The position numbers and the translations under genes are program-made. Of a DNA stretch of 64,000 nucleotides, positions 811 to 57,520 are shown piece by piece. The stretch is from Ostreococcus lucimarinus. Its lineage: Eukaryota. Under the pieces are notes generated by a model that worked only from the letters and a program-made list of their open reading frames with translations, had not been told where the DNA came from and searched no databases. Every line of letters begins with the position of its first letter. The first letter of the stretch is position 1. The stretch lies in NCBI GenBank assembly GCA_000092065.1, contig CP000601.1. One strand, 5' to 3'.

Positions 811-1036
811 CACAGCGATAAATTTTTTAAAGTACTATCCGTCACCCCGAAACGACGAAAGTCACAGTGTTGTCGTGTCGCTTTTCCATCACGGACAATC
901 GGGTGTGGGAAAAAGTAAGGTGTGATGTCGACACATCTCTTCCTGCGGGTTTCGATCCCGCGGCTTCCAGATCTCTATCGGAGCAGCCGTCATATTCGAC
1001 GGAGACTTTTTCCTAACAGTCTGACACTCTACCAGC
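811..1036. repeat. 226-bp dispersed repeat, copy 1 (direct repeat partner of 6746..6971)
   Basis: Aligned by eye to 6746..6971 with 3 mismatches in 226 bp. Contains the palindrome-like core TGTCGACACATCTC (926..939) and a tRNA T-arm-like hairpin GCGGGTTTCGATCCCGC. Confidence 0.9.
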
Positions 1037-1666
1037 AAAATTGTTTACAGAGATACCGCGACGAGATTGAAGCAATACAAGGAACTCGATGGGCACCTGA
1101 TGAACGCCTCCGTGTGGGACGAGTATTTGACCCCAGAGATGCTCAGTCTGTATAATCCCGAAACAGACCAATTCGAGGAGCCCAAGCACTGGCTAAATGG
1201 GAAGCGTGTAGGAATTGCAATACTGGCGGATGATGTAAAATCGAGTCCGTTGCTGTCTAACAAAGCCTGGCGCAACCTGTGTATCAAATGCCGCCACCTT
1301 GGATCCTTCCCTGACAGTTCTCCACCAATAGGGTGCTCGATTTTCTGCGCGAGGTCAAGGACGCCGACGCGACGCTCCCAGACAAGTTGAAAGCCGAGGT
1401 ACCGACCATGCTTCAGAAAGGCGTGCGCGCGTATCTGGATTAAGCTTCACAAGTACCGTGGTGTGGGTAACATCTGGGACATCTTATCGAAATAATTCAT
1501 CGATGTTCGCCAGGAGATCGAGGAACAGGTGCCGTAAATTACGAAGAGCGTTTCGATTTACAATTTATATGATCCTCTAGCTTGAAAAATAGATCTCCGT
1601 CAGTGGCCGTGGGTGTGTTTGCCACAACTTGATTTGATAGTAATTGACATTTTTTTACCGCTCTCA

Positions 1667-3100
1667 TTAGTGCGCGTGTGCGTGTGAGTCTCCGCCACCG
1701 CCACCGCCTGTGCAATGCTTGTGGTTGAGGAGCACGAGACTGATGGCAACAACGCCGACGATGAAGGTGAGAATGCTCGTCGCGCGAAGACGAGGTGAAG
1801 TGGCGCTCACTGATACTCGGGGCATGCACTCTGCGGCGGCGATTTGCAGATAGACTCCAGCACCGAAGGCGAGCAGCAGTCCATGCCAGAAGTCGTTGTT
1901 ATTTCCCGATCCAACACTAATGAGGACGCCAAGAATGACACTCAAGCCGGAAACGAAGTTTAAAGTCAGCGTCGGCAACGGCGCGAGATCGCCCTGGAAG
2001 GGGTCTACGAGCACCAAGTAGTCAGCAAGCTCTTGAGCGATTTCGTGATAGACGGTCGCGGCGGTGATCGACCATCCCATGGTACTGTCGCAGTTCAGAA
2101 AGCCGAAGCCAATGAAAATACCATCCACTAGGTTGTGCATGAAATCTCCAAGAATGATACCACTTCGAACGCGATACTTGTGTGAGTTACAAGTACAAGT
2201 ATCACAGTCATCTTGAGCGCCTTTGACTGCAAGTTCCGCATCGGTTGTCTTCGCTGTATTTCCAAGAGTTGGGAACACGACAGAGATACCAAAGTCGATG
2301 AAGTAGGCCATGAGAAAGCCGAAGATAGAAGCGGAAGCCCACCATGCGGTCTGCTCTGCCTCATCCGAGCCAGCAGGTTTGATTAAATGCGTGGCTTCGT
2401 AGAACATCAGATAAAACGCAGCCGAAAGAAGTGCGCCGGCGGCAAACGAGTTAATTGTGCAACTCACAGTTTCAGGGTACGCTTTCTGCTTCTTAGCGAT
2501 ACTCGGGATGAGAAAGACCACACCAGAAAGTGTGACGATATTGACGATAATTGCCGCCCCAATGGCGTTGGCCCACGGTTTTGATTTCGATTCGCTCACG
2601 GTGGATGCTTCGGGAAGTGAAGCTTTTGGCACCACGTCATCTCCGTGGAGGTCCTTGAGATAGTGCGCGTCGCGCTCGAACTCGGTGGGAACGTGCTCAG
2701 CGAAGATTGAGATCGCGTCGATGCCAGTCGTATTAATCTTAAACGGCGTCGTGTGCCAGGTGTTGTCAAATTCAAGGTTGACACACCCACTATCAGGTGT
2801 CAAAACACTATCTCGTATCTTAGCCGTCGTACAAGCTCCCCCGATTGCGGTATCACCGCTATCCTCGCGGGCTTCGAGCTCGTCGTGTCCGGCGGCGATT
2901 TCGTCGTAGATGACCATTTTCATGGTATCGGCGGCGTACTTATCGGCCACCTTTTGCGCCTGCCACACGTATTCATTCTCTGGCGTCTCAAAGATTCCAG
3001 CCCATTCGAATGCGTGCGCGCCGGACGCGTGCGCGCCGCGCTGCGCGAGCGCGCTCGCGACGATCGCGATGCCACCACCGAGCGCGCTCGCGCAGCGCAT
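1667..3100 (-). CDS. ZIP-family (SLC39/ZRT-IRT-like) zinc/metal transporter
   Basis: ZIP signature in a TM helix (VYHEIAQELADYLVL, matching HExPHExGD), HNLVDG motif, multiple TM helices, N-terminal signal peptide (MRCASALGGGIAIVASALA). ORF 1667..3196 on the minus strand, with the likely start at the internal Met at 3100. Confidence 0.8.
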   Translation of the reverse strand: MRCASALGGGIAIVASALAQRGAHASGAHAFEWAGIFETPENEYVWQAQKVADKYAADTMKMVIYDEIAAGHDELEAREDSGDTAIGGACTTAKIRDSVLTPDSGCVNLEFDNTWHTTPFKINTTGIDAISIFAEHVPTEFERDAHYLKDLHGDDVVPKASLPEASTVSESKSKPWANAIGAAIIVNIVTLSGVVFLIPSIAKKQKAYPETVSCTINSFAAGALLSAAFYLMFYEATHLIKPAGSDEAEQTAWWASASIFGFLMAYFIDFGISVVFPTLGNTAKTTDAELAVKGAQDDCDTCTCNSHKYRVRSGIILGDFMHNLVDGIFIGFGFLNCDSTMGWSITAATVYHEIAQELADYLVLVDPFQGDLAPLPTLTLNFVSGLSVILGVLISVGSGNNNDFWHGLLLAFGAGVYLQIAAAECMPRVSVSATSPRLRATSILTFIVGVVAISLVLLNHKHCTGGGGGGDSHAHAH

Positions 3101-3196
3101 CGTTCGCCCTCGTCGTCGCTCGACCGTCCTCGCACCGCGTGCGCGTTCGCGCGGCGGCATCGTCGTCTTCGTGTTCTTCGTGTTTTCGTTCGTCAT

Positions 3197-3658
3197 CGTT
3201 TCCGTCGTCGTCGTCGTCTTCGCCGGCGTCGGTAAGTGCGGCTGCGCACAAACTAAAGCGGCATACGAACCGAACCGGCGCGATGGAGGGCGGTCGTTTA
3301 TAAGTCACGACTCGCGAACGACAAAATGTCGACATCCGCCGCAGTGTCGACACATCTCGGTGGTACTTGGATATGTCGAAATATGTCGACATGTGCGTCG
3401 AGACGTTTTTCGTATATAGATGCATCACGGGGTTCAATGCGTACACGCGCGTGGGTAAATATGTCGACATGCGTGTCGACATGTTTACGACGCGCGTCGC
3501 GACGCGATCCGTGATGGGCTTCGCGGGGCGTCGCGTACGACGATCCTCGACACGTGCACGACGCGAATCGTCGACACGTGCACGACGCGCGCGCATCGCC
3601 GCACTTCGCGACGCCTCTTCGGCTCGTTCGCGCGCGGAGACGTCGATCGCCGTACATC
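3197..3658. promoter_or_regulatory. Bidirectional promoter between ZIP(-) and COG0523(+) with a repeated palindromic element and two tandem G-box (CACGTG) 21-mers
   Basis: Copies of ATGTCGACAT (or its TGTCGACA core) at 3326-3335, 3344-3355, 3383-3392, 3461-3470 and 3474-3483, plus a half-site at 3371-3380. Tandem repeats TCGACACGTGCACGACGCG at 3547-3565 and 3568-3586. Confidence 0.6.
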
Positions 3659-5299
3659 ATGTCCACACCCGCCGCAATCGCCAATCATAATCGATTGCCG
3701 GTGACAACGCTGTGCGGGTTCCTCGGCGCTGGGAAGACGACAACTCTGAAACGCGTGCTCGAAGCTAAGCGAGACGCGAACGGAAAGTTTCGGTGTGCCG
3801 TCGTCGTGAACGACGTCGCGGAGTTGAACATCGACAAAAAATTAATCGATGATTCCGCTTTGCTGCAGAGCGACGAGGTGGTTGCCATGCAGAACGGATG
3901 CGTGTGCTGTTCGTTGAGCGGAGACTTTGTAAAACAAATCGGGGACATGGCCAAGAGTGGCAATTTTGACTACATGATCGTAGAGGCATCAGGAGTGTCG
4001 GAACCGGCGGAAATTGCGAAACTCTTCGCAAATTGTGAGGACGATCACGATCATGAAGCTGCGCACGTTGATGAGCATGAACATTTGAGCACACTGGCGC
4101 GGCTGGATACGTGCGTGACGGTCATCGCTGCAGGTGACTTTCTCGACATGATTGATTCTTTCAGGGCGTCAGCTGTGAACAGGCAGTCTTACTCTCAATT
4201 GTTGGCTGAACAGATAGAGTACGCGAATGTCGTCGTATTGAACAAGGTCGACACTGTCGATGACGAACAACTCGCCGAGATTAAAGCGCAGATACAACTT
4301 CTCAATTCACGTGCTGATATTCTTGAAGCTGTGAACGGCGCGATCGACGTTACGCGAATCGTCAATACAAAACTTTACAAAGAGAATGACTTTGCTGGTT
4401 TCATAACATGGGAACAAGAGATAGAAGCAACATCTGTGAAGTCATGCTGCGCCGGCGCTAGGGACAAAGGTGAGTCTCCATGCTGTAAGCGAGCTCGCAT
4501 GAGAGAAACAGCCTTAAGCGAGGTCACGCTTGCACCAAGTTCTTCCCAAACACGTCACGATAGTCGGTTCGGTATTACGTCTTTCATTTACCGAGCCAGA
4601 AGACCTTTTCATCCCAAACGGTTTTTAGGCTCATTTGTCGAGCGCTTCTTCAGCTCCCTCGAGGCCGATGACCGTGATGAAGAAAAAGATGAAGAGACAC
4701 CAAGTGTAGACTGGAGTGCAGTGAAAGATATTCGAGCGCGACAAGAAGCGATGAAACTCAAGCGCCGTAAAAGGGAAGGTGAAATTGGTGTGCTGCTACG
4801 TTCGAAGGGTGTAACGTGGCTCAGTGATGCCCACGACTTGATAATTGTTTTCAGTCAGGCTGGTAATATTTACTCTCTCGAAGGATCAAGCCGATGGACC
4901 GCGCTGAATAAAAATGCTTGGGTCGGCTCACAGGGGATAAAGCAAGAACTTCGTAAAGACTGGGAGGGGCCTTATGGTGATCGCCGACAAGAACTGGTGT
5001 TCATTGGCAAGGATCTTAAATACGATGAAATTCAATCAACGTTGGACTCTTGCCTCTTGACCGACGAAGAATTCGAAATGGGTTCTGATGGCTGGAGAGC
5101 AGTCATGGGTGATGTCTTTCTAGACGAAGACGACGAAGACGAAGACGACGAAGTCGATGACGAAGACGACGAAGAAATCGACGAAGATTTGGTCGACGAC
5201 GAGGAGATCGAAGAGGAGATCAGGCCGCAACCCACTTCAAAGTCGAAGGCAAAACCAAAGGCAAAGTCGGCGCCCTCTCAAAACGACGGCTTAGTCTGA
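3659..5299 (+). CDS. COG0523/CobW-family GTPase, ZNG1-like zinc metallochaperone
   Basis: P-loop GFLGAGKTT, the CxCC metal-binding motif (GCVCCS) and a His-rich stretch (EDDHDHEAAHVDEHEH) typical of Zn-linked COG0523; CobW_C-like C-terminus and a poly-acidic tail. The ORF opens at 3554, but the likely ATG is at 3659 (MSTPAAIANHNRLPVTT...). Confidence 0.85.
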   Translation: MSTPAAIANHNRLPVTTLCGFLGAGKTTTLKRVLEAKRDANGKFRCAVVVNDVAELNIDKKLIDDSALLQSDEVVAMQNGCVCCSLSGDFVKQIGDMAKSGNFDYMIVEASGVSEPAEIAKLFANCEDDHDHEAAHVDEHEHLSTLARLDTCVTVIAAGDFLDMIDSFRASAVNRQSYSQLLAEQIEYANVVVLNKVDTVDDEQLAEIKAQIQLLNSRADILEAVNGAIDVTRIVNTKLYKENDFAGFITWEQEIEATSVKSCCAGARDKGESPCCKRARMRETALSEVTLAPSSSQTRHDSRFGITSFIYRARRPFHPKRFLGSFVERFFSSLEADDRDEEKDEETPSVDWSAVKDIRARQEAMKLKRRKREGEIGVLLRSKGVTWLSDAHDLIIVFSQAGNIYSLEGSSRWTALNKNAWVGSQGIKQELRKDWEGPYGDRRQELVFIGKDLKYDEIQSTLDSCLLTDEEFEMGSDGWRAVMGDVFLDEDDEDEDDEVDDEDDEEIDEDLVDDEEIEEEIRPQPTSKSKAKPKAKSAPSQNDGLV

Positions 5300-5399
5300 T
5301 GTCTTTCTAGGTGACACTGAAGCGGAACAGGGTGGAGATGTGGACTCGGGCAACTCTTCCGACATGTAAGCTTGTCCTTTATAGTGAGCCCACACCGAT

Positions 5400-5696
5400 G
5401 TGAGCGCAAGTCATTTTTATGCACACAGTGACATCTTCATCGAATACCAGACGTGGTTGCCAGCGGCTGCGCGCGGTCAAGATAGCGCGACGAAGGTCGG
5501 CAATAAGCTCAAGGACTTCTTCAAGAAGGAAAAGGGCCACAGGGTCCCAATGGAAGAGGACCACCTGAGGCAAGGTAGAGACGAGAAGGGCGTCTATTGG
5601 GAAATTCACCGCGACGGGTGCTTCGAGTGGCTGAAGGACAATGGGTACACAGGGGAGACGGAGCTCGCGCCGGCGGTCGTCTGGTGCTCATACTAA
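5400..5696 (+). CDS. Hypothetical small protein (98 aa) in the lower-GC island
   Basis: Intact ORF with lower GC than its flanks. No recognisable domain. Confidence 0.3.
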   Translation: MSASHFYAHSDIFIEYQTWLPAAARGQDSATKVGNKLKDFFKKEKGHRVPMEEDHLRQGRDEKGVYWEIHRDGCFEWLKDNGYTGETELAPAVVWCSY

Positions 5697-5761
5697 TTTT
5701 GTAATTCGTACATTTGCAATATGAAGACTCAACGAGACACCAAAAAGACCATGGTTTGGAT

Positions 5762-5951: not shown

Positions 5952-6130
5952 GTCTCGACGGATCACGAACGTCCAGGTGTGAAATCAGGCGGTTCGGTAT
6001 CTACATTCCGGACCTTGCAGCCCACGCAGCGATACGCGTACCTATGGTCTCTCGGATGTGACTGCAAACCGCAGGAGGAGGCACTTTTGGCAACAATATT
6101 TTCTTAGGGATAGATAGGTAACCAGGACAA

Positions 6131-6628
6131 ATGCCGTCGGGATGCGTGTACGAAATGTTTAGCGATAATGCGAAATGTAACAAAACGTACATCGGATCGA
6201 CGACGGGTTCGCTCAGAGCGCGCCTTGCCTCGCATAAATACGCACGACATCCAATCTTCACGTTTGGCGACGCGGACGTGAGAGTTCTCGAAAAGGACAT
6301 TCCAGCTGGAGAGCTCCATCAACGTAAAGGTGCCTACATGAGAGAGAAGCGTGACGGCTTATTCAACTCCCGAGCTGCTGGACGCAGCCAGAAACACGCG
6401 TGCCGCGAGAACGTGGACGAGAGTCCAGCCTACAGCAGAGCTCAATATACGCCGAAGCGGGACGGCGGCGATGGTAACTACAGACAACTCAATTATTACA
6501 AGCAGCACGCAAAAGGAATACTGCGCAAGACGTGCCTCAAGAATGCCCGAGCGCGCGGCACGCTGCCTTCGAAGCGCAGTCTCGACAAGTATCAATTTAC
6601 GGTAGATGAGTTACGCGGCTTGGCTTGA
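6131..6628 (+). CDS. GIY-YIG-like nuclease-domain protein (small, 165 aa)
   Basis: N-terminal GCVYEMF (GIY-like) followed by YIGSTTGSLRARLASH (YIG, conserved Arg, His) and a downstream Glu. GC is about 52%, well below the window average. Sits immediately upstream of repeat copy 2. Confidence 0.55.
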   Translation: MPSGCVYEMFSDNAKCNKTYIGSTTGSLRARLASHKYARHPIFTFGDADVRVLEKDIPAGELHQRKGAYMREKRDGLFNSRAAGRSQKHACRENVDESPAYSRAQYTPKRDGGDGNYRQLNYYKQHAKGILRKTCLKNARARGTLPSKRSLDKYQFTVDELRGLA

Positions 6629-6745
6629 CCACTTCACTCACACGATTGGTTCTGGAGAAATCTTACATGCGGTACATCAACGTCGATGTGCGGTTTTATC
6701 ATGTTGGGGTGCCCCAACTCAAAAAAAAAGTTTATTTTTATTACT

Positions 6746-6971
6746 CATAGCGATAAATTTTTTAAAGTACTATCCGTCACCCCGAAACGACGAAAGTCAC
6801 AGTGTTGTCGTGTCGCTTTTCCATCACGGACAATCGGGTATGGGAAAAAGTAAGGTTTGATGTCGACACATCTCTTCCTGCGGGTTTCGATCCCGCGGCT
6901 TCCAGATCTCTATCGGAGCAGCCGTCATATTCGACGGAGACTTTTTCCTAACAGTCTGACACTCTACCAGC
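6746..6971. repeat. 226-bp dispersed repeat, copy 2
   Basis: 98.7% identical to 811..1036 in the same orientation. Preceded by an A9 run (6721-6729). Confidence 0.9.
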
Positions 6972-7232
6972 TGAGTTAAGGAAGACTGTTTATGCATACG
7001 CACAACATCGCGGACATTCGACTGCCCATGCTCTTTATTTCGAGGCTTAACTCGGCGAGGTGGACGAATAATTGGTATTATACGTCGCTCGATGGTGGGT
7101 TTGCGACAGATCTTCGCGGCTTGACGCCGTCGATCCGCGATCGCGAATGTTACAGGTTGAGGGCTCGGGCGAGGACGTCGGTGGTTTTCGCGCGTTCGTT
7201 CGTTCGTCGTCACTCCGCGGTCGAATCCATCG

Positions 7233-10200
7233 GTGGATACGATGGATTCGACGCGGTGCGCGACGTGCCGGGCCGTCGTGCGCGGCGGCGCGGCGACGTG
7301 CGCGGAATGCGGGGCGCCGCAGGGCTACGATTCGGATTCGGACGCAACGATTCGCGTCGACGATGACGATGATGACGATGATTCTTCGCACTACGCCCGG
7401 GACGCCCGGGACTCGAGCGCTTCAGACGCCGACTCGAGCACTTCCGCCTCGTCCACGACTCGGCGTCGGCGGGAAGTCGAGTCGCGCGAGCGGGAGATGG
7501 AGGAATCGCCCGAGGCGTTGAAATTGTTGTACATGCTGAGTTTGTACACCGACGCGTCTCAGAAACAGTCGAAGTCGAAGTCTGCGGTTTCCAACAACAA
7601 CAACAACAAACGTTCTCCCTGGATTCGCGAGCTGCCGCTCCTGGTGCTCGTGTACGAGGGCATCGTGCGAAACGCGGTGTTCGATTACGATTACGCGCCA
7701 AAATCAGAAAAGATATTTGGAGCGTGTCCGAGGTATTTGAACGTCTCGGAAGAGGGACGAGACGATTTAGACGATTTGCGTGAGCTTGGTTTCATCACGG
7801 CGCTCAAGGTGACGAGCGAGACGTACGATCACTCGACGTTGTTGAAGATTTCCAAGAAGGGGAGCGAATTCTTGCAGAGGATGACGGCCTCGGGACGGTT
7901 CACGAGCGCGATGCGCCAGTCGGTAGATTCGTTGGTGCACGAAGCTGGTCACCTCCTCGAGGTGCGGTACGACCGCGAGTCCTCGGATTTTTTCCTCACC
8001 GTCCCCTCGATCGGGGTCCGCATCCGCTCCACCATCACGGACGTCGAAGACGTGCCGTACGTCTCGTCTCCGTACATCCCTCCGCACATGCTGAGCTCCG
8101 ATGCGTTCACACCGAACGCGTTGAACGGGCACAAAAAGGCAAAACGCGTGCTCGGCGGCGCCGTTCAAAGTAGTCGCGATATTCGCGACCCGCGCCTGAG
8201 TGAAAGTATCTTGCTCGACTCGGTGAAAATCATCGTCACCGAATACGTGCCGATGGGATCGAACGAAATGGTTTCTTTCTGTAGAAAACTCGGCACGGGA
8301 GACCGCGTCGCGGGCGGTATGTTCACCGCGGAAGCGAGCGCGACGCAGGACGAATTCAACATGGTGGTCGGGATCAACGCCGACAATAAAACCGAGCTAA
8401 AAGTCCTCGACGTCGACGAAACGCGATTCGTAAACGTCGAGGCAGACTTGCTCGCCACCGGGGCGCCCAAGAGTAACTTGGTGCAGCAGCAAATCGAGGT
8501 TTTCGGCATCAACTTTCGGGAAAACGGCGCCATCACTTACGGCATCGTCGTCAACGGCATCGCCGATCGAATTCGAAACGATATCAGCGTCGATTTACTC
8601 GCGCGCTTACTTTCCGACGTCCACGAAGACACGAGCTCGCTGGTGGGAAATTTATTTTCCGAGCGTCAGCGCTCCATGTTGAACATCACATACAAGGGCG
8701 AGCCGGACAATCGCGACAAGTTTACGTGCATCATCGCCGAGCGCGCGACGCCAAAACTGAAAGCCGCGGCGTACATGGATGGTGAAGATAACGAAAACGA
8801 GCTCAAGCAAGTCATCGGCGCGACGTTTTACGCGTACGACCTGAACGAACAAGAAGTCATCGTCTTTGGTTCACGCGGTGTCGTCGTCTTTGGTCCGCGC
8901 ACCGAACGTCATCACAAGCTTCTCGCGACATATTCAGCGTTCCAAGCTCGCTCGTTGTTCATCAAAAGTGTCTTCAGCAGTTGTTTCGCGCTGAACGACG
9001 AGTTGAAGAAGACGCGAGCGTTGATTGAAACCTATCAGATCGATCCGACGAACGTAACGCGCATTCGTTCGCGCCTCGCCGATCACACGACGACGGTGAC
9101 GATCTTGAGCGCCACTCAGCAGTTCGTGCTCGAGTCGCTCGAAAACGTCGACACGTCTCGTGAAAAGTTGAGCGCGGATATGAGCGACGGCGCGTCGCAA
9201 GTGTTGTACGACTTGTTTCAGTTGGAACCGTCGTGGAAACGCTTGCAAAGACGCGCCGTTGACTTGGAAAAAGTCATCGCGGCGTGCGTCAACGATCTCG
9301 AGTCTCTGCGAGAAATGAACGCCGTCATCGGCTCACGAAGAAAGCTCCGCATCAACGAGGCGATAGAAGGGACGACGAAAAACTTAGAGGATGCTTTCCG
9401 AGCGCAGGCGCGCAACAGCACCACGCTCGAGGTGACGCAAGTGATTTTGTCGGGGACGCTCGCGTTTGACATTCTCGATCGATTCACGGGGCAATACCTT
9501 TCGTTCACCGAGATTCGATGGGCCGTCGAAGCGGTGCAGCCGTACATAGTGAATGTTCCCGCGGTTTGGTTCATCTTGAACATGCTCGCGTGGTCGGCGT
9601 TGGGCGGTGGAATTGTTTATTTGATGCGCTACTTGGCCTACATGCATTGCAGCGTGGAGACGAAAAAGCTCACACTCAATAAACCCATTCATTTGTCGCG
9701 ATGGCGGCGATTCATCGCGACGCGCAACGTGGAGTCGACGGCTTTTAAGGAGGAGAACAACCGTCGCGTGGTGAAATACGGCTGGACCGAGCCCATCGAC
9801 GTCAAAAAGTGGAAAGGAACGCCCCCGAAGATTAACGTCACCATCGACGAGCGATACGGTTTCATCTTGCAAGCGATGATCATCATCAATAAGCGCACGT
9901 GTACGCTCTCCGGCGATGCGGTGTGGCGTCAATTTTGGAGCGATGTTTTCGTCGCTCGCAACGTCCACGATCAAAGTCGAGAGCTGTTTGACACCGACAC
10001 CGGCGACCGTTTGCAAACGGCCGAATATTCGTCAGAAGAAGAAGACGAGACTCGCCGCGACGTCACGGCCAAGATCATCGGCATCGACAACCGAAAGTCC
10101 ACGTTAAAGTGGCGCGATGGCAGGCAAATCCTCGCGCAAGACGACACCGACGACGACATCGATTCGGACGAGGAGGCGATCGCGAAGACGGGCGATTTGA

Positions 10201-49324: not shown

Positions 49325-52300
49325 GTGCGAGCGCGTCTCGCGCGGGCGTCGCGCGCGCACCGCATTTCGCGACGGCGGTCGATGCGGGCCCCGTCGCGCG
49401 CGCCGTGCGCGTCCGCGCGCCCGGAGGCCGGCGTCGTCGACGCCCTCGATGATCTCGCCGCCGTCGACGCCCGCGCGTGCGGCATCGGCAAGCTCACGAT
49501 CGCGCACGACGACGACGACGACGACGCGCGAGGTCTCCGCCATCGCGACCGCGGCGCGTTCGCCCTCGATTTGCGCGCGTGGTCGTTCACCGCGCGCACG
49601 CAGCCGGTCCGCGCGCTCGGGGCGTGCGCGCGAGACGCGTCCGTCGACATGCGCGTGCCGTTCAGGGACGAATACGAGCGACACAGGGCGTCGCGACCGG
49701 ACGAACGCGCGCCGCGAGGGGCGAGTTGGCGCATCCATCGAGTGCGAGGATGGCGCTTCGACCTGCGCGCGCTGTACGAGGAGGTGAAAAGACGCGGTGG
49801 CGCGGACGCGATCGATGGAAATCAAGGCTGGCGCGAGGTCGCGGAGGCGATCGGGGCGCACGGACGCGGATGCGCGGCGGGACACGCGGCGAGAGCGCTG
49901 CACGGGGCGTGGCTGGAGGCGTTCGCGCGCGACGCCAAGCGAAGAGAAGACGCGGTGAAGAGCGCGCAGTTCGACGCGGTGAAGGGAGAGATCGAACAAG
50001 ATGACGCGCTGGCGATCGATGCGCTGTGTGGGCTCGAATTTGGGGCGTCGGGCGCGCCCGAACGGCGAGTCAAGGTGGAAAATGTGCGTAATTCGTGCCA
50101 TATCTTCTTCGCGCGGGACCGGGATGACGGCGAATCGCACGCGTTCGCGGCGCGTGCGACGCGCGCGCGCGATGATGGGCGTCGCGATGACGTGCGACTG
50201 ACTTTTACGGCGCGTGTTTTCGCGACGCAGGGCCTCGATCTCGTCGCCTCGCAGCTCGCGGACGCGCCCGAGGGCGACGCCGACTGCGACGTGTGCGGCG
50301 CGAGCGGGAACGAAGACGCGATGATCCTGTGCGATGGGTGCGATCGAGGGTGCGTATACGACAATGCCACGCGAGAACGCGCGCGTGAAAATTATCTCGA
50401 TCGTTCGGACGCGCGTTCGGGGAGAGAGAGCGCTCGCGCGGCGCGCGAGGGCGCGGCGAACGCGCGCGTGGGCGACGGTTAGACGTGGGGTTTAGAGGCG
50501 CGCGGGGGAGAAGGAGCCGCGAAGGAGCGACGAGACTGACGAATGATGCGCGCGTAGGTCACATATGTACTGCTTAACGCCGAAGATGACTGAAGTGCCG
50601 AGTGGAGAGTGGTTTTGTGGACGATGCGAAGAGATTGACGCGGAGGTGGAGCGATTGAGCGCGGATGAAGGGACGCAGTTTACGCTCGGCGATTTCAACG
50701 AGGCGTGCATAGAATTTGATACGGCGTTCTTTGGCGAGGACGCCAAGCGAACTGGGATCGATATGCAGGTGATTGAGGAGTGTTTCTGGCGAATGGTTGA
50801 AGATGCGAGCTCGGTGGATGATGTTTGCGAGGTCAAATGCGGCACGGCGATTGACACGACAAAGTACGGAAGCGGGTTCCCGAGACACGGCGAAGCGCTT
50901 CAGGTAAAGATTGACGGCGTGAGCCCGGAATCTATCAAGCGCTGGTCAGAGTCGAAATGGAATCTCAACAACGTCGCGCGCGCGAGTGGGGAAAAGTCGT
51001 CGCTACTGGGCGCGTTGAAGGATGACGTGGCGGGCGTGACGACGCCATTCTTAGAAGTCGGAAGCACGTTTAGTTCCACGACTTGGCGTCGAGAAGAGCA
51101 TAACATGTACAGTATCACTTACAATCACTGGGGTGCCGCGAAACTGTGGTACTGCGTGCCGGCGAGTGCAGCGGACAAGTTGGAAGAATGCTTCCAGAAG
51201 GTGATGCCCGACGTCTACGAGGCGCACGTCAACGATTTGGGAAGCGTCTTTACGATGCTCTCGCCGAGCTTCTTGATGAGCGCGGGAGTGCCCGTGCACA
51301 CGTTGGAGCAATTCCCAGGAGAATACGTGGTGACGTATCCCGGGGCGTACTACGCGTCGTTCAACTGTGGATTGAACTGCACGGAGAGCGTCAACTTTGT
51401 GCCCGCTGACTGGCTCCCAGAGGGCTCGGCGAGCGTGGAGAGAAACCGATCGTACGCCAAGCGTTCATTGTTTAGTCACGACGAGTTGGTTTGCAGAGTA
51501 GCAAACAATCCTAGTTCGAGCATAGCGCCGCACTTGTGGCCCGAGATTGCGCGCTTGTACGCTGAAGAGGCAAACGGTCGCGCCGAGCTTTTCGCGTCTG
51601 GCGTGACGCGCAGCGCGCAAATGACGTCAGCAGACGACGACGACGACGACGATGGCTGCGAAAAGCCTCGTAAAGTACGATCTAGGTTTGACGATGCATC
51701 GAACTCTGGATCCGATGAGTGCGTTGTTTGTCGACACATTTTGTACTCGTCTGGCGTCGGGTGCTCGTGCGACGAGACGCGCAAGGCGTGCTTGCGACAC
51801 GTCAACGACTTGTGCAAATGTGCGATGTCGAAGAAGACGATGTTTTACAGAGAAACAGTGGCTGATTTAGAAAGTCTGGTGAAGAAGACGGAGAAGGCGC
51901 TTTCTCAGAAGGAACTAGCCAGCTTAAAATCCAAGCACAGCGACTTGGACTCAGTCACAGTGAACAAGAATCTCGTCAAGAAGGCTCAGGCTTGGGTGAA
52001 ACGAGTGGGCGAAGAGCTCGTCAAACCACCTTTGCCGCCGCTGGACAAGATGAGAAATTTACTCGCTGCGGGTGAAGAGTTTATTTGGGGTGGTGCTGAT
52101 ATGAAGGCGGCTCGAGAAGCGTACACTCGCGTGACGAACGCCGTCGCGTGGCAGACGAGTCTTGTGGCGCTGAAGCAAAGGCTTGGATCCAGTGCTGGTG
52201 CCGAGGCCGCGCACGATGACGCTGGTGAAGCGCGATTGAGATTGAACAGACTAAAAGAGCTCCTTGACAACCCACCGGTACCGATGCCTAAGGCTGATAC

Positions 52301-55300
52301 TCAACCTTTCCGCGATTTGCTCGCGGCGGGCTTGAAATTGGAGGAACGCATCAAGGCGGCTCTCGCCGAGGTACCGAATCCATCTCCTCGCGCTTGTACG
52401 ACGCTTCAAACTGAAGCGAATAAGTTTGGTGTGGAAGTCCCTTCATATAAAAAGCTGAAGGACGTCATCGTTAGAGCAGGCGCGTGGTCCACGAAGGTGC
52501 GCGGCGCGCTTCCAGGACGACGACAACTCCCGCCGCGCGAGGAACTAGCGAATGCTCGAGAGATCGAGGCGTTATACGAAGAGGCGCATGGATTACCCGT
52601 TCAGCAGAGCGAACTCTTGACTTTGCGCAAATCTTTAGAAGAGTTGAATTTTTGGCGCGCAAAGTCTGAGTCGCTGTTCGTCGCCAAGGTTGACGTGGAA
52701 GAAGCCGAGGCGCTTCTCAAGGAGGGCATGGCGTTGTCAACAAAACTCGACGAGGTCGACAGACTAGCCGATCAAATCAAAGCTGTCAAAGTGTGGGCCG
52801 ATCATGCTCGAGCGAGTGATTATCCGGGAGCAAGAGTGACGGATTTGCACATGCTTCTCGTCGAGGGTGAAAAGTTTAGCGTGCGAGTGGACGAAGTCGA
52901 GTGGTTGCGAAACCGTATCGTCGTCCGGGAGCTGGCAGAGAAATTGAAGGACATGGTTTCATCGAAGAAATATCCGCTCGCCGAAGTCGAAGCGGCCGTG
53001 CGGGCGGGTAACGAGTTCCTCGACTCCGAAGATAAAGAGGTTGCCCCAGATGAAGAAGCGCTGCTGGCGCAGTGCGAGAGCCACATCAACGCGGCGAAGA
53101 AGTGGAACGAGCGCGCGGCGGTGATGCTCAAATCTCTCGATAGTAAGGACCGACCGTCACTCGAAGACGCCGCGTCGCTCATCCGCGAAGGAAGCTCGAT
53201 TCCAATCTTTCTGAATGGATTCGACGTGCTTTCAGAAGCGGTCAATGTAGCCAAGTCTTGGTTGGATCGTGCACAACCTTGTTTGAAGGGAAAGCAGCTC
53301 ACTCGTCGCGGTGTGTCAAATCCGATTCCGCCGCTTTCCGAGGCGCAAGAGCTCATGAAAGAGTCTTCGAACTTGAAATTGTTTGTCAAGGAAGTTGAAG
53401 CTTTGGAAGAACGCGTCGAAGCCGCAGAAGAGTGGGACGTGGACGCGAAGGACGCCATCGAGCGCTGGCGAGAAGACGGCGCCGAGGTGACGTTGACCGA
53501 GCTTGAACTTTCGCACGAAGACTTTGGATTAGAATTACCAGCCATGGAGACAGTTCGCATTCGTTTAAAGTCGCTCAAGTGGGAAGAACGCGTCGCTAAG
53601 ATCATTGCACCCAAGGCGAAGCTCGTCGAGGACACCGTTTTGGACGAGCTCAGGGAAGAAATCGACGTGCTTCAAGACTTGAAAGAGGATCTTGTCGCTG
53701 AAATCATGAAACGGTACACGATTGTGGACGAATGGCGCAAGAAAGCGGATCGTTTGCTCGATCCTCCTCTCCTTGAAGACGGTCGATTGGCTCCGAGTGC
53801 ATCACCGGAGGAAATAGACGCCCTCATCGCCGAAGGCAAGGCACTTCCCGCTGACGTCTCGAAGGTAGAAGACCTCGAGGCGTCGTTGGCGGATCACGCA
53901 CAGTGGGTCGACACCGTTCGTAAGTGCTTGAACAGTGTCGCTGAAGGTCGATCTCGCCCTTCGATTGACGAATTATACGATCTTCTAGCGGAGGTGGAAG
54001 ATTTGACCTTCAAGTGCTCAGAGAGACAAGCGCTCACAAATGCGTGCAACGCCGCCACGGCGTGGACGGAGAGGCTCAACGCGTTGCTCTGGGCAAACGA
54101 TCAGGGTGAAGTCAAACAAGAAAAAACGCTTATCGAAATGTTGAGCAATGTTCTTGATTCCATCAAAGCTGGTGTGGAAGACATCACCGGGACTGGCGAA
54201 CCGCCGGAGACGGAGGAGGGTTAGTTCTGCCTTTGTCGACAAGCTGGAGGAATTCAAATGGTTGGATGTGATGATTGCGGTGACTGGTATCACTTAAAAT
54301 GTATCAATGTGACGCCTACTATGGCAAAGACGATGCACAATTACATCTGTCCGCCATGCATCGCGAAGAGTGGCAAGGCGAGCGCACTCTCGTTGGATAC
54401 GTATCGCTCGGTGCATCGCACCAATCGCCCAAACGTCATGCTTTTGCGAGAACTCCTCGGTGAAGCGCAGCGATTTCCTGGAGAAGTGCCAGAAGAAGCC
54501 GTGTTGAATCAAGTCATCAATACTCACGACGCGTGGCGATTGGAAGTACGAAAGACTTTGCATAGAAAGAGTATGAAGGAAGCACACGACAACGCCATCA
54601 GTCAAGCTTCGAAGATTGCCCAAGAAGCAGCGATGAGAGAATCTGAGGAACGCACACGACGAATCGCCGAAGCGTCGCTCGCGGCGACTGCAGAGAACCC
54701 CAATCCTCCAGCTTCTCTCACGCCATTACAGCAAGTCATGCTGATGGGTCAAGCTGTCACGTTCGCCGCAACGCAGCGCACGCACGCGTTGAACATTTCG
54801 CCGTGTTCGCAGGAGATTTCAGATGTCGTCACAAAGCAGCTCGGGCAACTTCAACAGCTCGCCATGCAACTCGCGATGTGCCAAGCTCAAATTCACATGG
54901 CTCCAGTTCGGTCTAGGCCCCACATCCTCCACGTCTTGATGATGCAGCAACAGCATCTAAAGATGACAAACGAGCACGAGGAAGAGCTGGCAAATGTTGG
55001 CGCTAGCAACTGGCTCATGGAAGCGACTCTGCAACTATCTGGAATGTCTGGCATGATGCCGCCGCCGACGGCGCAAGACACCGGCAAAGAACCTTCAACA
55101 TCCACGGGTCATGGTAGTCCAAGCGATATGTCTGCTCAGTTGAAGACGAACGAACCGATGATGGTTCCGCAGCAGTTCATGTTGCAACCGGCCATGCCAT
55201 CGCTTGTCGGCGACGCGTCTGGAATGCCCAAGCAAGAGATGGATTACACGTATGACATTCCTCGAAAAGATAATGTCGATCCAGCGCTGCAAGTGTACGC

Positions 55301-56087
55301 GGGCATGAAGGGTGCTCTGGCGATGGAGCTGGAACCTGTTGAGGAGACGCTCGCGTTGATGCGCGAAGTGTGCGGTCCGGCGTGGAGAGAACAAGCCACG
55401 CGGCTCATGACTGGTGCGCCGTTCCCGAGGTTGATCAAGCTTCACGAGCTCAAGGAATCTGCCATGGCTGCTGGTCTTTGCCCTGGTGCCGGCATTGATC
55501 CTTTGGCCGATCGCGCGCACGCGTTGGAGGTTGCTGGACAAATCTGGCTCGAACGCGCCGCCGCCGTCGTGCAAGACAAAACGATTCCTATCGAGGCGGC
55601 GCAGTTGCTGCTTCAAGAGGGTCGATCTTTGCCTTTATACTTGAAGGAGGAGCTCGAGGAGTTGGGAGAGCGATGCGAACTGTATTGCGTTTGCCGAAGC
55701 GCGTACGACGCTCTCAGGCCGATGATTTGCTGCGATCGATGCGATGGTTGGTTTCATTACGAGTGCATCGGCATGCAGTCGCCGGCGCCGGGCGAGGAAG
55801 ACGAAAACGCCGAAAACGTCAAGTTTGCCTGCCCAGAGTGCTGCGCGGCGCAAGGTATTCCGTACGTTCCGTTCCGTCCAGCGCCGAAGGACACGGACAA
55901 AGCGCCGGAGCGAGCCGCGCCTCCGCCGGCTGAAGAAGCTCCGGAGCCGCCAAAGACGGAAGAAGAAGCGAAGCCGCCCGCTAAACCAGAACCGGAAGTC
56001 GCGGACAACAAGAAGAAACGAAAAACGGTGGAGCCGACTCCGCCTGCTAATAAAAGTACCTCTAGTCGCAGCAGAAGACGAAAGTAG
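49325..56087 (+). CDS. KDM5: KDM5/JARID1-type JmjC histone demethylase (ARID-PHD1-JmjC-C5HC2 ZnF-PLU1-PHD2-PHD3), interrupted by one clear intron (50350..50556) and an in-frame TAG at 54222..54224
   Basis: ARID block FDLRALYEEVKRRGGADAIDGNQGWREVAEAIG. PHD1 is split by the intron (CDVCGASGNEDAMILCDGCDRG | SHMYCLTPKMTEVPSGEWFCGRCEE). JmjC core HNMYSITYNHWGAAKLWYCVP...FNCGLNCTESVNF, then a C5HC2 zinc finger. Downstream PHD fingers FCLCRQAGGIQMVGCDDCGDWYHLKC...CPPC and CVCRSAYDALRPMICCDRCDGWFHYEC...CPEC. Confidence 0.8.
50350..50556 (+). other. KDM5: Spliceosomal intron of the KDM5 gene (207 nt, GTGCGT...GTAG), splitting PHD1
   Basis: Splicing gives CDGCDRG-SHMYCL, a canonical C-x4-H-x2-C PHD spacing, in frame. 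Confidence 0.8.
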
Positions 56088-56135: not shown

Positions 56136-57362
56136 TCAACCGTCCAGGTGCTCGTCCCATCCCAGGTCTCGTTTCGGCTTGCGCCTACCGACCAACTTGG
56201 CCGCGTCCAGTTCGGTCAACAATTCAATTTCGTCGAGTGTTTCCTCGCTCACATCGATGTCGTCCGTCACCGCGAGCTTTTGACCCTTTCTATGACGCTC
56301 GACGAGTTCTTCGAGATATCCTTGCTTTGCGTAGTTCGGTATCAACCTAGACATGTACACGCCGCGCAAAATACGTTTTTCTTCCTCAGTCAAATCGCCG
56401 TGAAACCCTCGGCGGTTGATCCGGTCCGTCACGGCGTGCGACATCACGAGCGCGGCGGCGACGGAAATGTTCAAAGACTCGGTGAAGCCAAACATCGGAA
56501 TGTACACGGCGCCATCCCGCAGCGCTCGCGCCTCGTCCGAAACCCCCTCGCGCTCGTTCCCAAACACCACCGCCGTGGGCACGGTCCAATCGTAATGCGA
56601 CAGCGGCTGCGCGCCGTCAAACTCAGTCGTAAGAACGCGGTATCCTTTCGCCTTCGCGACTCTGAGCGCGCGTTCCGACGTCTCAAACTGCTCCACGTGT
56701 TGCCACTTCAGCGCCCCTCCCGACGTCCTCCCGCTCGCCTTGAACGACAGCCCCTTCGAGCTCACGATCGACGCGCACCCGATCCCCAGCGCCTCCGTCG
56801 TCCGACACACCGCCAAGATATTGCCGACGTCGTAGACGCCCTCTAGAATCGGCAGCAACGAAAAACTTCTATGCTCCAAAACGTTTTCCAGCCGCATGCG
56901 TCGCTCTTCCCCGACCATCGCCGTCGCGAGCGCCACCATCGTCTCCGTCTCGCACGTCGCCCTCGCGAACGCGAATCCATCGCCGTACGGGAATCTTTCC
57001 CTCTCGTCCTCGTTCGCGCGCGTCCCCAAATCTTCCCGCCGCGCCCGCACCAGCCCGTGAAACTCCAGCGCGTCCGGCGCCCACGCGCGCTGCCTTCGGT
57101 GCGCCTTCGCGCTCTTCGTCGCCACCGCGCCCGTGCGCGCCACCGCGCGCGTCGGTCGCGGCGTCGTGCGCTTCACGACGACGTCGTGCGGGCCGGCGTG
57201 CGCGCGCGACCCCGGTTCCGACACCGATTCCGATTCCGCCGCGTCGTCGTCGCGCGCGCGTCGCGTCGCCGGTCGAGCGACGCGCGCGGCGCGCTCGCGA
57301 GCGTCGCGTCGATTCGCGTCGATTCGCGATCCCGCGCCCGCGATCGCGCGCGTCGACGCCAT
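56136..57362 (-). CDS. SpoU/TrmH-family RNA 2'-O-ribose methyltransferase
   Basis: SPOUT motifs VVFGNEREGVSDEARAL...YIPMFGFTESLNISVAAALV. N-terminal presequence-like region. Confidence 0.78.
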   Translation of the reverse strand: MASTRAIAGAGSRIDANRRDARERAARVARPATRRARDDDAAESESVSEPGSRAHAGPHDVVVKRTTPRPTRAVARTGAVATKSAKAHRRQRAWAPDALEFHGLVRARREDLGTRANEDERERFPYGDGFAFARATCETETMVALATAMVGEERRMRLENVLEHRSFSLLPILEGVYDVGNILAVCRTTEALGIGCASIVSSKGLSFKASGRTSGGALKWQHVEQFETSERALRVAKAKGYRVLTTEFDGAQPLSHYDWTVPTAVVFGNEREGVSDEARALRDGAVYIPMFGFTESLNISVAAALVMSHAVTDRINRRGFHGDLTEEEKRILRGVYMSRLIPNYAKQGYLEELVERHRKGQKLAVTDDIDVSEETLDEIELLTELDAAKLVGRRKPKRDLGWDEHLDG

Positions 57363-57520
57363 TCGAATCGCCGCGCGACGCGAAGTGTCGACATCGCGTC
57401 GCGCGGCGATTCGAATCGCGTCGCGCTCGAACGGCGTCGCGTCCTCGCGACGCGCGCGCGATGACGCGCGAACGTCGCGCGCGCGCCGCGCGGTCGCGGG
57501 GCGCGCGCGCGCGCGAGACG

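Follow-up and report, generated by a model that had tools for sequence, protein, structure and literature searches.

A 64,000-nucleotide stretch of the Ostreococcus lucimarinus genome (contig CP000601.1; hereafter, the window) contains a ZIP-family zinc transporter gene and a COG0523 (CobW/G3E GTPase) gene diverging from a 463-bp intergenic region (nt. 3197–3658), in which a 10-bp palindrome occurs five times. By its sequence, this palindrome matches, at all ten positions, the Zinc Deficiency Response Element of land plants (ZDRE; consensus RTGTCGACAY), and the array probably represents a ZDRE cluster in a bidirectional promoter, where zinc-responsive bZIP sites would drive both genes. Compared with known systems, the array is best described as a prasinophyte-alga variant of the plant ZDRE module, with a putative non-canonical bZIP. 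ZIP and COG0523 are classic zinc-deficiency gene classes, and COG0523 genes are induced specifically by zinc depletion in Chlamydomonas (PMC2770081).

The motif array and its plant counterpart

The five intergenic sites, all of which fit RTGTCGACAY and lie within 157 bp of one another, comprise ZDRE 1 (ATGTCGACAT, nt. 3326–3335), ZDRE 2 (GTGTCGACAC, nt. 3344–3353), ZDRE 3 (ATGTCGACAT, nt. 3383–3392), ZDRE 4 (ATGTCGACAT, nt. 3461–3470), and ZDRE 5 (GTGTCGACAT, nt. 3473–3482). ZDREs 1 and 2 form a conserved pair, 18 bp start to start, in the ZIP-proximal half of the region, a stretch with homology to ZIP/bZIP promoters in other Ostreococcus lineages, while ZDRE 5 follows ZDRE 4 by 12 bp, the same period seen in O. 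tauri. A degenerate ZDRE (ATGTCGAAAT, nt. 3373–3382), matching at nine of ten positions, abuts ZDRE 3. An earlier sequence-only reading had located the sites at nt. 3326–3335, 3383–3392, and 3461–3470 correctly but placed the fifth at nt. 3474–3483, one nucleotide off, and the half-site, which does exist, at nt. 3371–3380, two nucleotides off.

The exact 10-mer ATGTCGACAT occurs three times in the window, always in this region (starting at nt. 3326, 3383, and 3461), against a shuffle expectation of 0.08 copies per window, with three or more copies in 0 of 100 shuffles. Its 8-bp core, TGTCGACA, occurs 10 times in the window (1.42 expected), half of these at nt. 3327–3481, and the five cores in the intergenic region compare with 0.006 expected under a third-order Markov model (Poisson P ~8e-14). 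CG-repeat sequence aside, TGTCGACA is the most clustered 8-bp palindrome of the window, and the clustering that the sequence-only reading had pointed out is genuine. Local duplication accounts for part of the array (nt. 3379–3408 vs. 3457–3486, 87% identity; family D5), with ZDRE 4 a duplicate of the ZDRE 3 unit, and the five sites are therefore not five independent events. Searches of the same intergenic region for the cAMP response element (CRE), AP-1 sites, and the yeast zinc-responsive element (ZRE) returned none, and matches to the metal response element (MRE) and to GTAC were at background level.

In land plants, the ZDRE is a 10-bp imperfect palindrome and the site of the F-group bZIPs bZIP19 and bZIP23, which activate ZIP and NAS genes at low zinc and are off when zinc binds their Cys/His-rich sensor (PMC5476651, PMC9643250). 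It occurs in the promoters of zinc-homeostasis genes, typically ZIP genes and often in two copies, and the mutant form RTGTAGACAY is not bound by F-bZIPs in vitro. The window array likewise lies in a promoter, that of the ZIP and COG0523 genes. Across unique-context algal cores, the outer R and Y positions are kept in 24 of 26 (P = 7e-13), and both of the others are the two non-promoter occurrences of TGTCGACA in the window. Since these outer positions are constrained, the algal element has the plant 10-bp consensus, more than a common core. Our literature search, which was incomplete, found no report of the ZDRE motif or of an F-type bZIP in algae.

The motif contains an ATG, and the short 'MST...' open reading frames (ORFs) called across the array are artefacts of it, as the sequence-only reading had recognized; metagenomic gene calls for the neighbouring bZIP described below are inflated for the same reason ('MSTPMSTPVSTP', 'HVDIRRSVDT').

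On the COG0523 side of the array, a 23-nt unit is tandemly duplicated on the plus strand (nt. 3543–3589), with copies at nt. 3543–3565 and 3567–3589 (96% identity) and a 24-bp period. The '21-mer' label given to this repeat earlier was incorrect; the 19-mer reported within it, TCGACACGTGCACGACGCG, is indeed tandemly duplicated, with its second copy at nt. 3571–3589 and not nt. 3568–3586. Each unit, (G)TCGACACGTG, carries one CACGTG (nt. 3551–3556 and 3575–3580) and a ZDRE-like right half, (G)TCGACAC, and the repeat units may therefore be weak extra sites. CACGTG is a classic bHLH/bZIP site, the two boxes stand 84 and 108 bp ahead of the COG0523 start codon, and an IRO3-like bHLH gene adjoins a paralogous COG0523 copy, all of which would fit the two boxes being key regulatory sites (for a bHLH or a G-box bZIP), with or instead of the TGTCGACA sites. 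We regard this as very improbable, given that CACGTG sits at window background (21 observed vs. 23.7 expected), that both copies stem from a single duplication event, and that the repeat is missing from two of three promoter versions (types B and C, below) whose COG0523 protein is identical or 97% identical to the window's, from other Ostreococcus lineages, and from all other lineages compared. The earlier proposal of CACGTG as a regulatory feature, and its reading as a G-box array, were thus rejected, the hexamer being neither enriched nor conserved. The bHLH gene (locus L014, nt. 7870–8697; 275 amino acids), with a Pfam match to bHLH_IRO3, a plant iron-deficiency bHLH type, lies directly downstream of the type C COG0523 gene.

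Recurrence of the motif across algal lineages

Metagenomic contigs of the O. lucimarinus type, identified by a COG0523 protein identical or 97% identical to that of the window, display three promoter versions. Type A, as in the window, has five ZDREs and the CACGTG repeats, and only this version has ZDRE 3. Type B is identical in its ZIP-proximal half and then continues into unrelated sequence, retaining two ZDREs, whereas type C has a different upstream neighbour and a single ZDRE amid unrelated sequence. The ZDRE 1 and ZDRE 2 pair is kept in types A and B as well as in L026, L028, L029, and L033–L048.

The promoters of diverged Ostreococcus ZIP orthologues (79–92% identity) always contain a ZDRE pair, mostly 18 bp apart, and several of these lineages have an extra ZDRE ~95 bp upstream of a gene for a COG0523 protein of 431–435 amino acids. 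In L026, L044, and L048, both arrangements are combined, with the pair lying between the ZIP gene and a bZIP gene and the additional site ~95 bp upstream of COG0523. On O. tauri chromosome 6 (CAID01000006.2), the order is ZIP, three tandem ZDREs (12-bp period), bZIP, and COG0523, and the three ZDREs are the only matches in 14.6 kb. Beyond the genus, a Micromonas-like alga (L049; guanine-cytosine (GC) content 0.63) has two ZDREs, 270 and 400 bp upstream of a bZIP-adjacent ZIP gene (the sole matches in 16.5 kb), and Cymbomonas tetramitiformis, from a different prasinophyte class, has one (L024; the sole match in 11.6 kb), 260 bp upstream of the gene for the closest named homologue of the window's COG0523.

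Tallied over nine non-redundant loci, 20 of 24 matches fall in the 2.9% of sequence made up of ZIP, bZIP, or COG0523 promoters. Without the window, the figure is 15 of 16 matches in 4.4% of 90.6 kb (binomial P = 7e-20), although such P values overstate independence, as the compared lineages are related and the array is partly a recent duplication. Two checks proposed with the original observation could be run on these loci, and the proposal survives both. The motif is far above background expectation, in the window as well as across ~90 kb of related loci, and it is not a dispersed repeat, as it recurs upstream of ZIP, COG0523, and bZIP genes amid unrelated flanks in several Ostreococcus lineages, the Micromonas-like alga, and Cymbomonas; in several lineage comparisons the flanking sequence has diverged beyond alignment. 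The comparative evidence across lineages supports the proposal that this is a homotypic binding-site array tied to metal homeostasis, although the sequence-only reading had not identified it with the plant ZDRE.

A second conserved palindrome-like element (AAGTCACGACTCG, nt. 3302–3314; GAGTCRTGACTCG in relatives) lies on the ZIP side, ~12–25 bp from the first ZDRE. All Ostreococcus lineages examined (the window, L029, L037, L044, L048, and O. tauri L031) have it at a matching relative position, and it could bind another factor or form part of the core promoter.

A linked bZIP gene as candidate factor

In L029/L030, L026, O. tauri, and at least 16 further metagenomic loci, a small gene (209–260-amino-acid product) sits directly beside the ZIP gene with ZDREs in between. 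The O. tauri protein (P0368, chromosome 6) is already annotated 'Basic-leucine zipper domain', and the algal proteins match Pfam bZIP_2 at 27.1 and 29.3 bits (threshold 22.3). Three blocks are invariant in at least five Ostreococcus lineages, namely the basic region (NRxAVRRYRERxR), a zipper block (…AELxHxxWLLxxxAWKYD), and a C-terminal block (ELxxKxFLExYFTHGxxCPC). The C-terminal HxDxCPC is kept from Ostreococcus to the Micromonas-like protein, in which it continues into PGHHSHHG. AlphaFold/AF2 modelling of the O. tauri bZIP returned a continuous helix over residues 37–97 (predicted local distance difference test, pLDDT, 85–98) and a short helix ending in THGDACPC; the low confidence at this C-terminal motif means that the model says nothing on metal binding.

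An exhaustive search of 1.84 billion representative sequences with the algal bZIP profile retrieved 42 proteins at E ≤ 0.001. The best match outside Ostreococcus, P0378 (E = 2e-13), belongs to the Micromonas-like alga, shares the same architecture (NRAAVRRYRHRQR … FLVHDDGCPCPGHHSHHG), and is encoded by a gene that also adjoins a His-rich ZIP gene. Next came P0380 (762 amino acids), which has two F-type bZIP domains, NRAAVRRYREKKKA and NREAVRRYREKKKA, followed by animal ATF4-type proteins (NxxAAxRYRxKK). P0380 may be an intermediate between the algal and plant proteins. Its N-terminal half has Cys/His-rich stretches (AHTVTCGHLAHGHACHE, CVHAHHTCGE), which gave no convincing alignment as a plant sensor motif.

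The basic region of Arabidopsis bZIP19 (AtbZIP19; exact match to BZP19_ARATH) reads NREAVRKYREKKKA, and the plant F-bZIP signature is NREAVRKYREKKK. The algal bZIPs read NR[AV]AVRRYRER[KR]R and thus carry this F-type signature, which to our knowledge is confined to group F among plant bZIPs. AtbZIP19 aligns with the algal profile at an hhalign probability of 96% (38% identity over 78 columns) and with the O. tauri bZIP by BLASTP at E = 2e-11 (35% identity over 79 amino acids). Among the 42 search proteins and the AtbZIP19 cluster, N-R-x-A-V-R-x-Y-R is found only in the algal bZIPs, P0380, a small P0405 group, and land-plant F-bZIPs. These positions contact bases in bZIP-DNA complexes, as in the GCN4 and C/EBP structures, and with the base-contacting residues common to the algal and plant proteins, the same DNA specificity is plausible. 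The algal bZIP seems to work like an F-bZIP, though its classification as a plain group F member was rejected on the sensor motif (see below).

Taken together, we propose that a bZIP dimer would read each palindrome, with one basic region per ATGTC/GACAT half-site, the factor most likely being the small bZIP encoded beside ZIP in other Ostreococcus lineages and in the Micromonas-like alga. At low zinc, it would activate transcription in both directions, yielding a ZIP importer for uptake and a COG0523 GTPase for zinc delivery to client enzymes, and under zinc sufficiency, zinc bound at the C-terminal His/Asp/Cys motif (HxDxCPC) would switch the factor off. Given the ZDREs in the bZIP's own promoter in relatives, the bZIP would also autoregulate.

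The land-plant module of Arabidopsis bZIP19 and bZIP23 resembles this arrangement in its identical consensus, its ZIP promoters with usually at least two site copies, the same basic-region residues (N, A-V, Y-R) followed by a K/R run, and the same proposed logic of direct Cys/His zinc sensing. It differs in several ways. The host here is a chlorophyte (prasinophyte) alga, a group from which the F-bZIP family is reported absent; the algal factor is without the N-terminal sensor and has the C-terminal HxDxCPC instead; except in O. lucimarinus, its gene is clustered with its presumed targets and has ZDREs in its own promoter; COG0523 is among the presumed targets, where a plant review lists ZIP and NAS genes; and the algal sites are tightly spaced, at 12–18 bp.

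A different account would keep the sites real but assign them to another factor or signal (iron, manganese, another divalent metal, or diel control), with the bZIP linked by chance or serving another role. ZIP transporters do carry several divalent metals, the ZIP/bZIP pair of L029/L030 has a ferric reductase gene nearby, and the IRO3-like bHLH gene of L014 stands beside the type C COG0523 copy. Yet the motif agrees at all ten positions with the element bound by plant zinc sensors, the linked bZIP has the F-type contact residues, and the bZIP-ZIP linkage recurs in two genera with differing gene orientation, and we consider this account unlikely. As a separate observation, the genes adjoining the ZIP/bZIP pair in the oceanic (Tara) lineage L029 encode a ferric reductase and an SBP_bac_5 protein (nt. 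6009–8339 and 8669–9210), a neighbourhood that suggests wider metal acquisition.

Several observations nonetheless weigh against the assignment of the array to a zinc-responsive, F-type bZIP, in addition to the relatedness of the lineages and sites noted above. By regular expressions, the plant sensor (C[ST]HTH[ST]CNP[PT]GPE...H[ST]HTC[FL]H[AV]HT) was found in 0 algal proteins vs. 15 of 15 Brassicaceae F-bZIPs, and the algal bZIP N-termini contain 0–4 Cys and His residues in all. The literal pattern N-x7-R/K-x9-L-x6-L-x6-L is present in P0378, whereas the Ostreococcus proteins show only N-x7-R-x16-L-x6-L, with the first heptad Leu replaced. Over the whole domain, ATF4-type proteins score 35–48 bits and plant F-bZIPs 30–35 bits against the algal profile, and as the former slightly outscore the latter, common ancestry with the F-bZIPs is not established and orthology cannot be claimed. 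No bZIP was recovered for O. lucimarinus itself, whether by tblastn against the window and L001–L022, with no copy in any O. lucimarinus-type contig examined, by homology search with the algal bZIP profile, which yielded only Ostreococcus-type proteins and no O. lucimarinus entry, or among the metagenome matches listed (600 stretches, at least 16 confirmed loci), where no bZIP contig was assignable to this species. In the literature, no F-bZIP is reported in O. lucimarinus (Castro et al. 2017) or Chlamydomonas, and the family is said to arise with land plants (PMC5476651, PMC9643250). Lastly, a second Cymbomonas COG0523 paralogue (L025) has no ZDRE, and the window contains ZDRE copies where no zinc gene is evident (nt. 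925, 6860, and 57385).

The O. lucimarinus cassette and wider significance

The ZIP gene (nt. 1667–3196, minus strand) encodes a product matching Pfam Zip at E = 1e-21, and its 477-amino-acid form (start at nt. 3100) is identical to the database entries XP_001420991.1/XP_001422904.1 (ZIP family transporter: zinc ion, Ostreococcus lucimarinus CCE9901). Two further proteins encoded in the window are also identical to entries of this species, and the window has the compact layout of a picoeukaryote chromosome. The COG0523 gene (nt. 3659–5299, plus strand; 546 amino acids) matches Pfam cobW (5e-41) and CobW_C (1e-18). Its product is a separate protein type, not the orthologue of the 431-amino-acid COG0523 in the O. 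tauri cluster, and its homologues include none between 97% and 53% identity. It lacks close relatives in other Ostreococcus species; the nearest named protein, that of Cymbomonas, is 53% identical, and many bacterial COG0523 proteins are 47–49% identical, which hints at an unusual origin of the gene. Among its homologues of 525 amino acids, expected to come from Micromonas, P0070 proved bacterial (PEP-CTERM and MerC neighbours) and hence useless for footprinting.

The ZIP-COG0523 cassette is bracketed by direct repeats of ~220 bp and 99% identity (left copy nt. 815–1036, right copy nt. 6750–6985), and its GC content (0.48–0.56) is below that of the rest of the window. The repeats correspond to the 3′ part of an intron-containing tRNA plus ~120 bp downstream. 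The tRNA itself (114 nt, nt. 6872–6985, minus strand; Rfam, 49 bits) was identified by Rfam, while ARAGORN found no tRNA in the window. The left copy holds a truncated tRNA without the 5′ end and ATGTCGACAC at nt. 925–934; in the right copy, ATGTCGACAC (nt. 6860–6869) lies beside the tRNA 3′ end. The repeat includes ATGTCGACACATCTC, which has a 14-mer, TGTCGACACATCTC, in common with ZDRE 2. Between COG0523 and the right repeat lies a 165-amino-acid ORF with a GIY-YIG domain (nt. 6131–6628), present in some contigs and not in others. It belongs to a family with multiple copies in O. lucimarinus (898-member cluster), and the pattern resembles polymorphic insertion of a homing-endonuclease-like element.

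In L006, the sequence of window nt. 3379–5757 is fused directly to that of nt. 896–3374, with an unrelated light-harvesting complex (LHC) gene upstream, which is a rearranged or tandem copy of the cassette. Its breakpoint coincides precisely with the ATGTCGAAAT|ATGTCGACAT junction, which would make ZDRE copies candidate points of recombination. Such features raise the question of whether the array is only a by-product of rearrangement, its short palindromic repeats having been amplified in a mobile cassette by replication slippage or by recombination. The sites would then have no regulatory function in O. lucimarinus and would be relics after loss of the bZIP at this locus. ZDREs 3–5 were made, in part, by local duplication, the 220-bp repeats each carry the motif, the L006 break lies at a site junction, promoter types A, B, and C are mosaics, and the bZIP gene is missing at the O. 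lucimarinus locus. Against this, the 10-bp consensus is perfect, R and Y included, in 5 of 5 copies although their surroundings differ, the same promoters retain the motif in different genera amid unrelated flanks, and ZDRE copy number went up, with no decay. Furthermore, the window ZIP shares 93% identity with the L037 ZIP, whose gene adjoins a bZIP gene, suggesting that the factor persists in the clade. A by-product is, on this evidence, improbable.

For the preferred reading of a zinc-responsive promoter, the corresponding history in O. lucimarinus would be that a ZIP gene and its ZDRE pair were joined to a different COG0523 in a direct-repeat-flanked cassette, and that the array grew from two to five sites by local duplication. 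L027 is another ZIP|COG0523 cassette, the ZIP of which pairs likewise with that of L044 (91%). The simplest reading of these pairings, we infer, is that the window holds a derived, duplicated cassette, with the ancestral ZIP|bZIP locus elsewhere in the genome.

Outside the cassette, the full ZDRE at nt. 57385–57394 (GTGTCGACAT) is the centre of a ~70-bp inverted repeat (nt. 57354–57423; 33-nt arms, 94% complementary) in the 98 bp between the divergent genes for a SpoU/TrmL-type methylase and a 523-amino-acid product (UniRef: sulfotransferase). The ZDRE of the type C COG0523 promoter (L011, nt. 5747) has the identical flank, AAGTGTCGACATCGCG. A KDM5-like histone demethylase ORF (JmjC, zf-C5HC2, PLU-1; nt. 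50565–54224) and a PHD/PLU-1 ORF (nt. 54258–56087) are separated by a 33-bp gap with TTGTCGACAA, and the core copy there has no R/Y flanks; the two ORFs probably belong to a single gene interrupted by a short intron or a frameshift.

The arrangement also recalls zinc regulation in more distant systems. In yeast, Zap1 is an autoregulated activator with direct zinc sensing, and its ZRE (ACCTTNAAGGT) is likewise a palindrome, often in multiple copies, at ZIP-family importers; however, Zap1 is a C2H2 zinc-finger protein and not a bZIP, its motif is unrelated, and ACCTTNAAGGT had no match anywhere in the 64-kb window. The bacterial Zur regulon (znuABC, COG0523) similarly places an importer and COG0523 under one zinc operator, often divergently, but Zur, a repressor of the Fur family, binds under zinc-replete conditions, and both motif and protein are unrelated. 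Animal ATF4-type bZIPs have the unusual basic-region Tyr-Arg in common with the algal bZIP and give the best whole-domain scores outside the green lineage, yet they have Ala-Ala in place of Ala-Val, sites of C/EBP-ATF response element (CARE) or CRE type, no zinc link, and no C-terminal CPC motif. The closest comparison within the green algae is the zinc-deficiency regulon of Chlamydomonas, where the same two gene classes respond (ZRT transporters and COG0523; PMC2770081). Its zinc sensors and regulatory factors were stated to be 'yet unknown', with no cis-element or regulator known (PMC2770081).

Zinc co-limits marine primary production, and O. tauri is a genetically tractable model alga. The locus offers a cis-element, a candidate regulator (P0368), and a compact three-gene zinc cluster, which together make the question of zinc sensing in eukaryotic algae directly testable. 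We put forward, at slightly less than an even chance, that the ZDRE/bZIP circuit predates land plants and existed in the ancestor shared by green algae and plants, with the clustered bZIP of the Mamiellophyceae being a relative of the F-bZIPs and a chlorophyte zinc sensor acting through its C-terminal HxDxCPC. If true, the origin of the plant zinc-deficiency response would shift to the base of the green lineage, the DNA-reading and metal-sensing parts of the factor would have evolved separately, and ZDRE arrays would serve as a sequence marker for zinc regulons in phytoplankton genomes and metagenomes.

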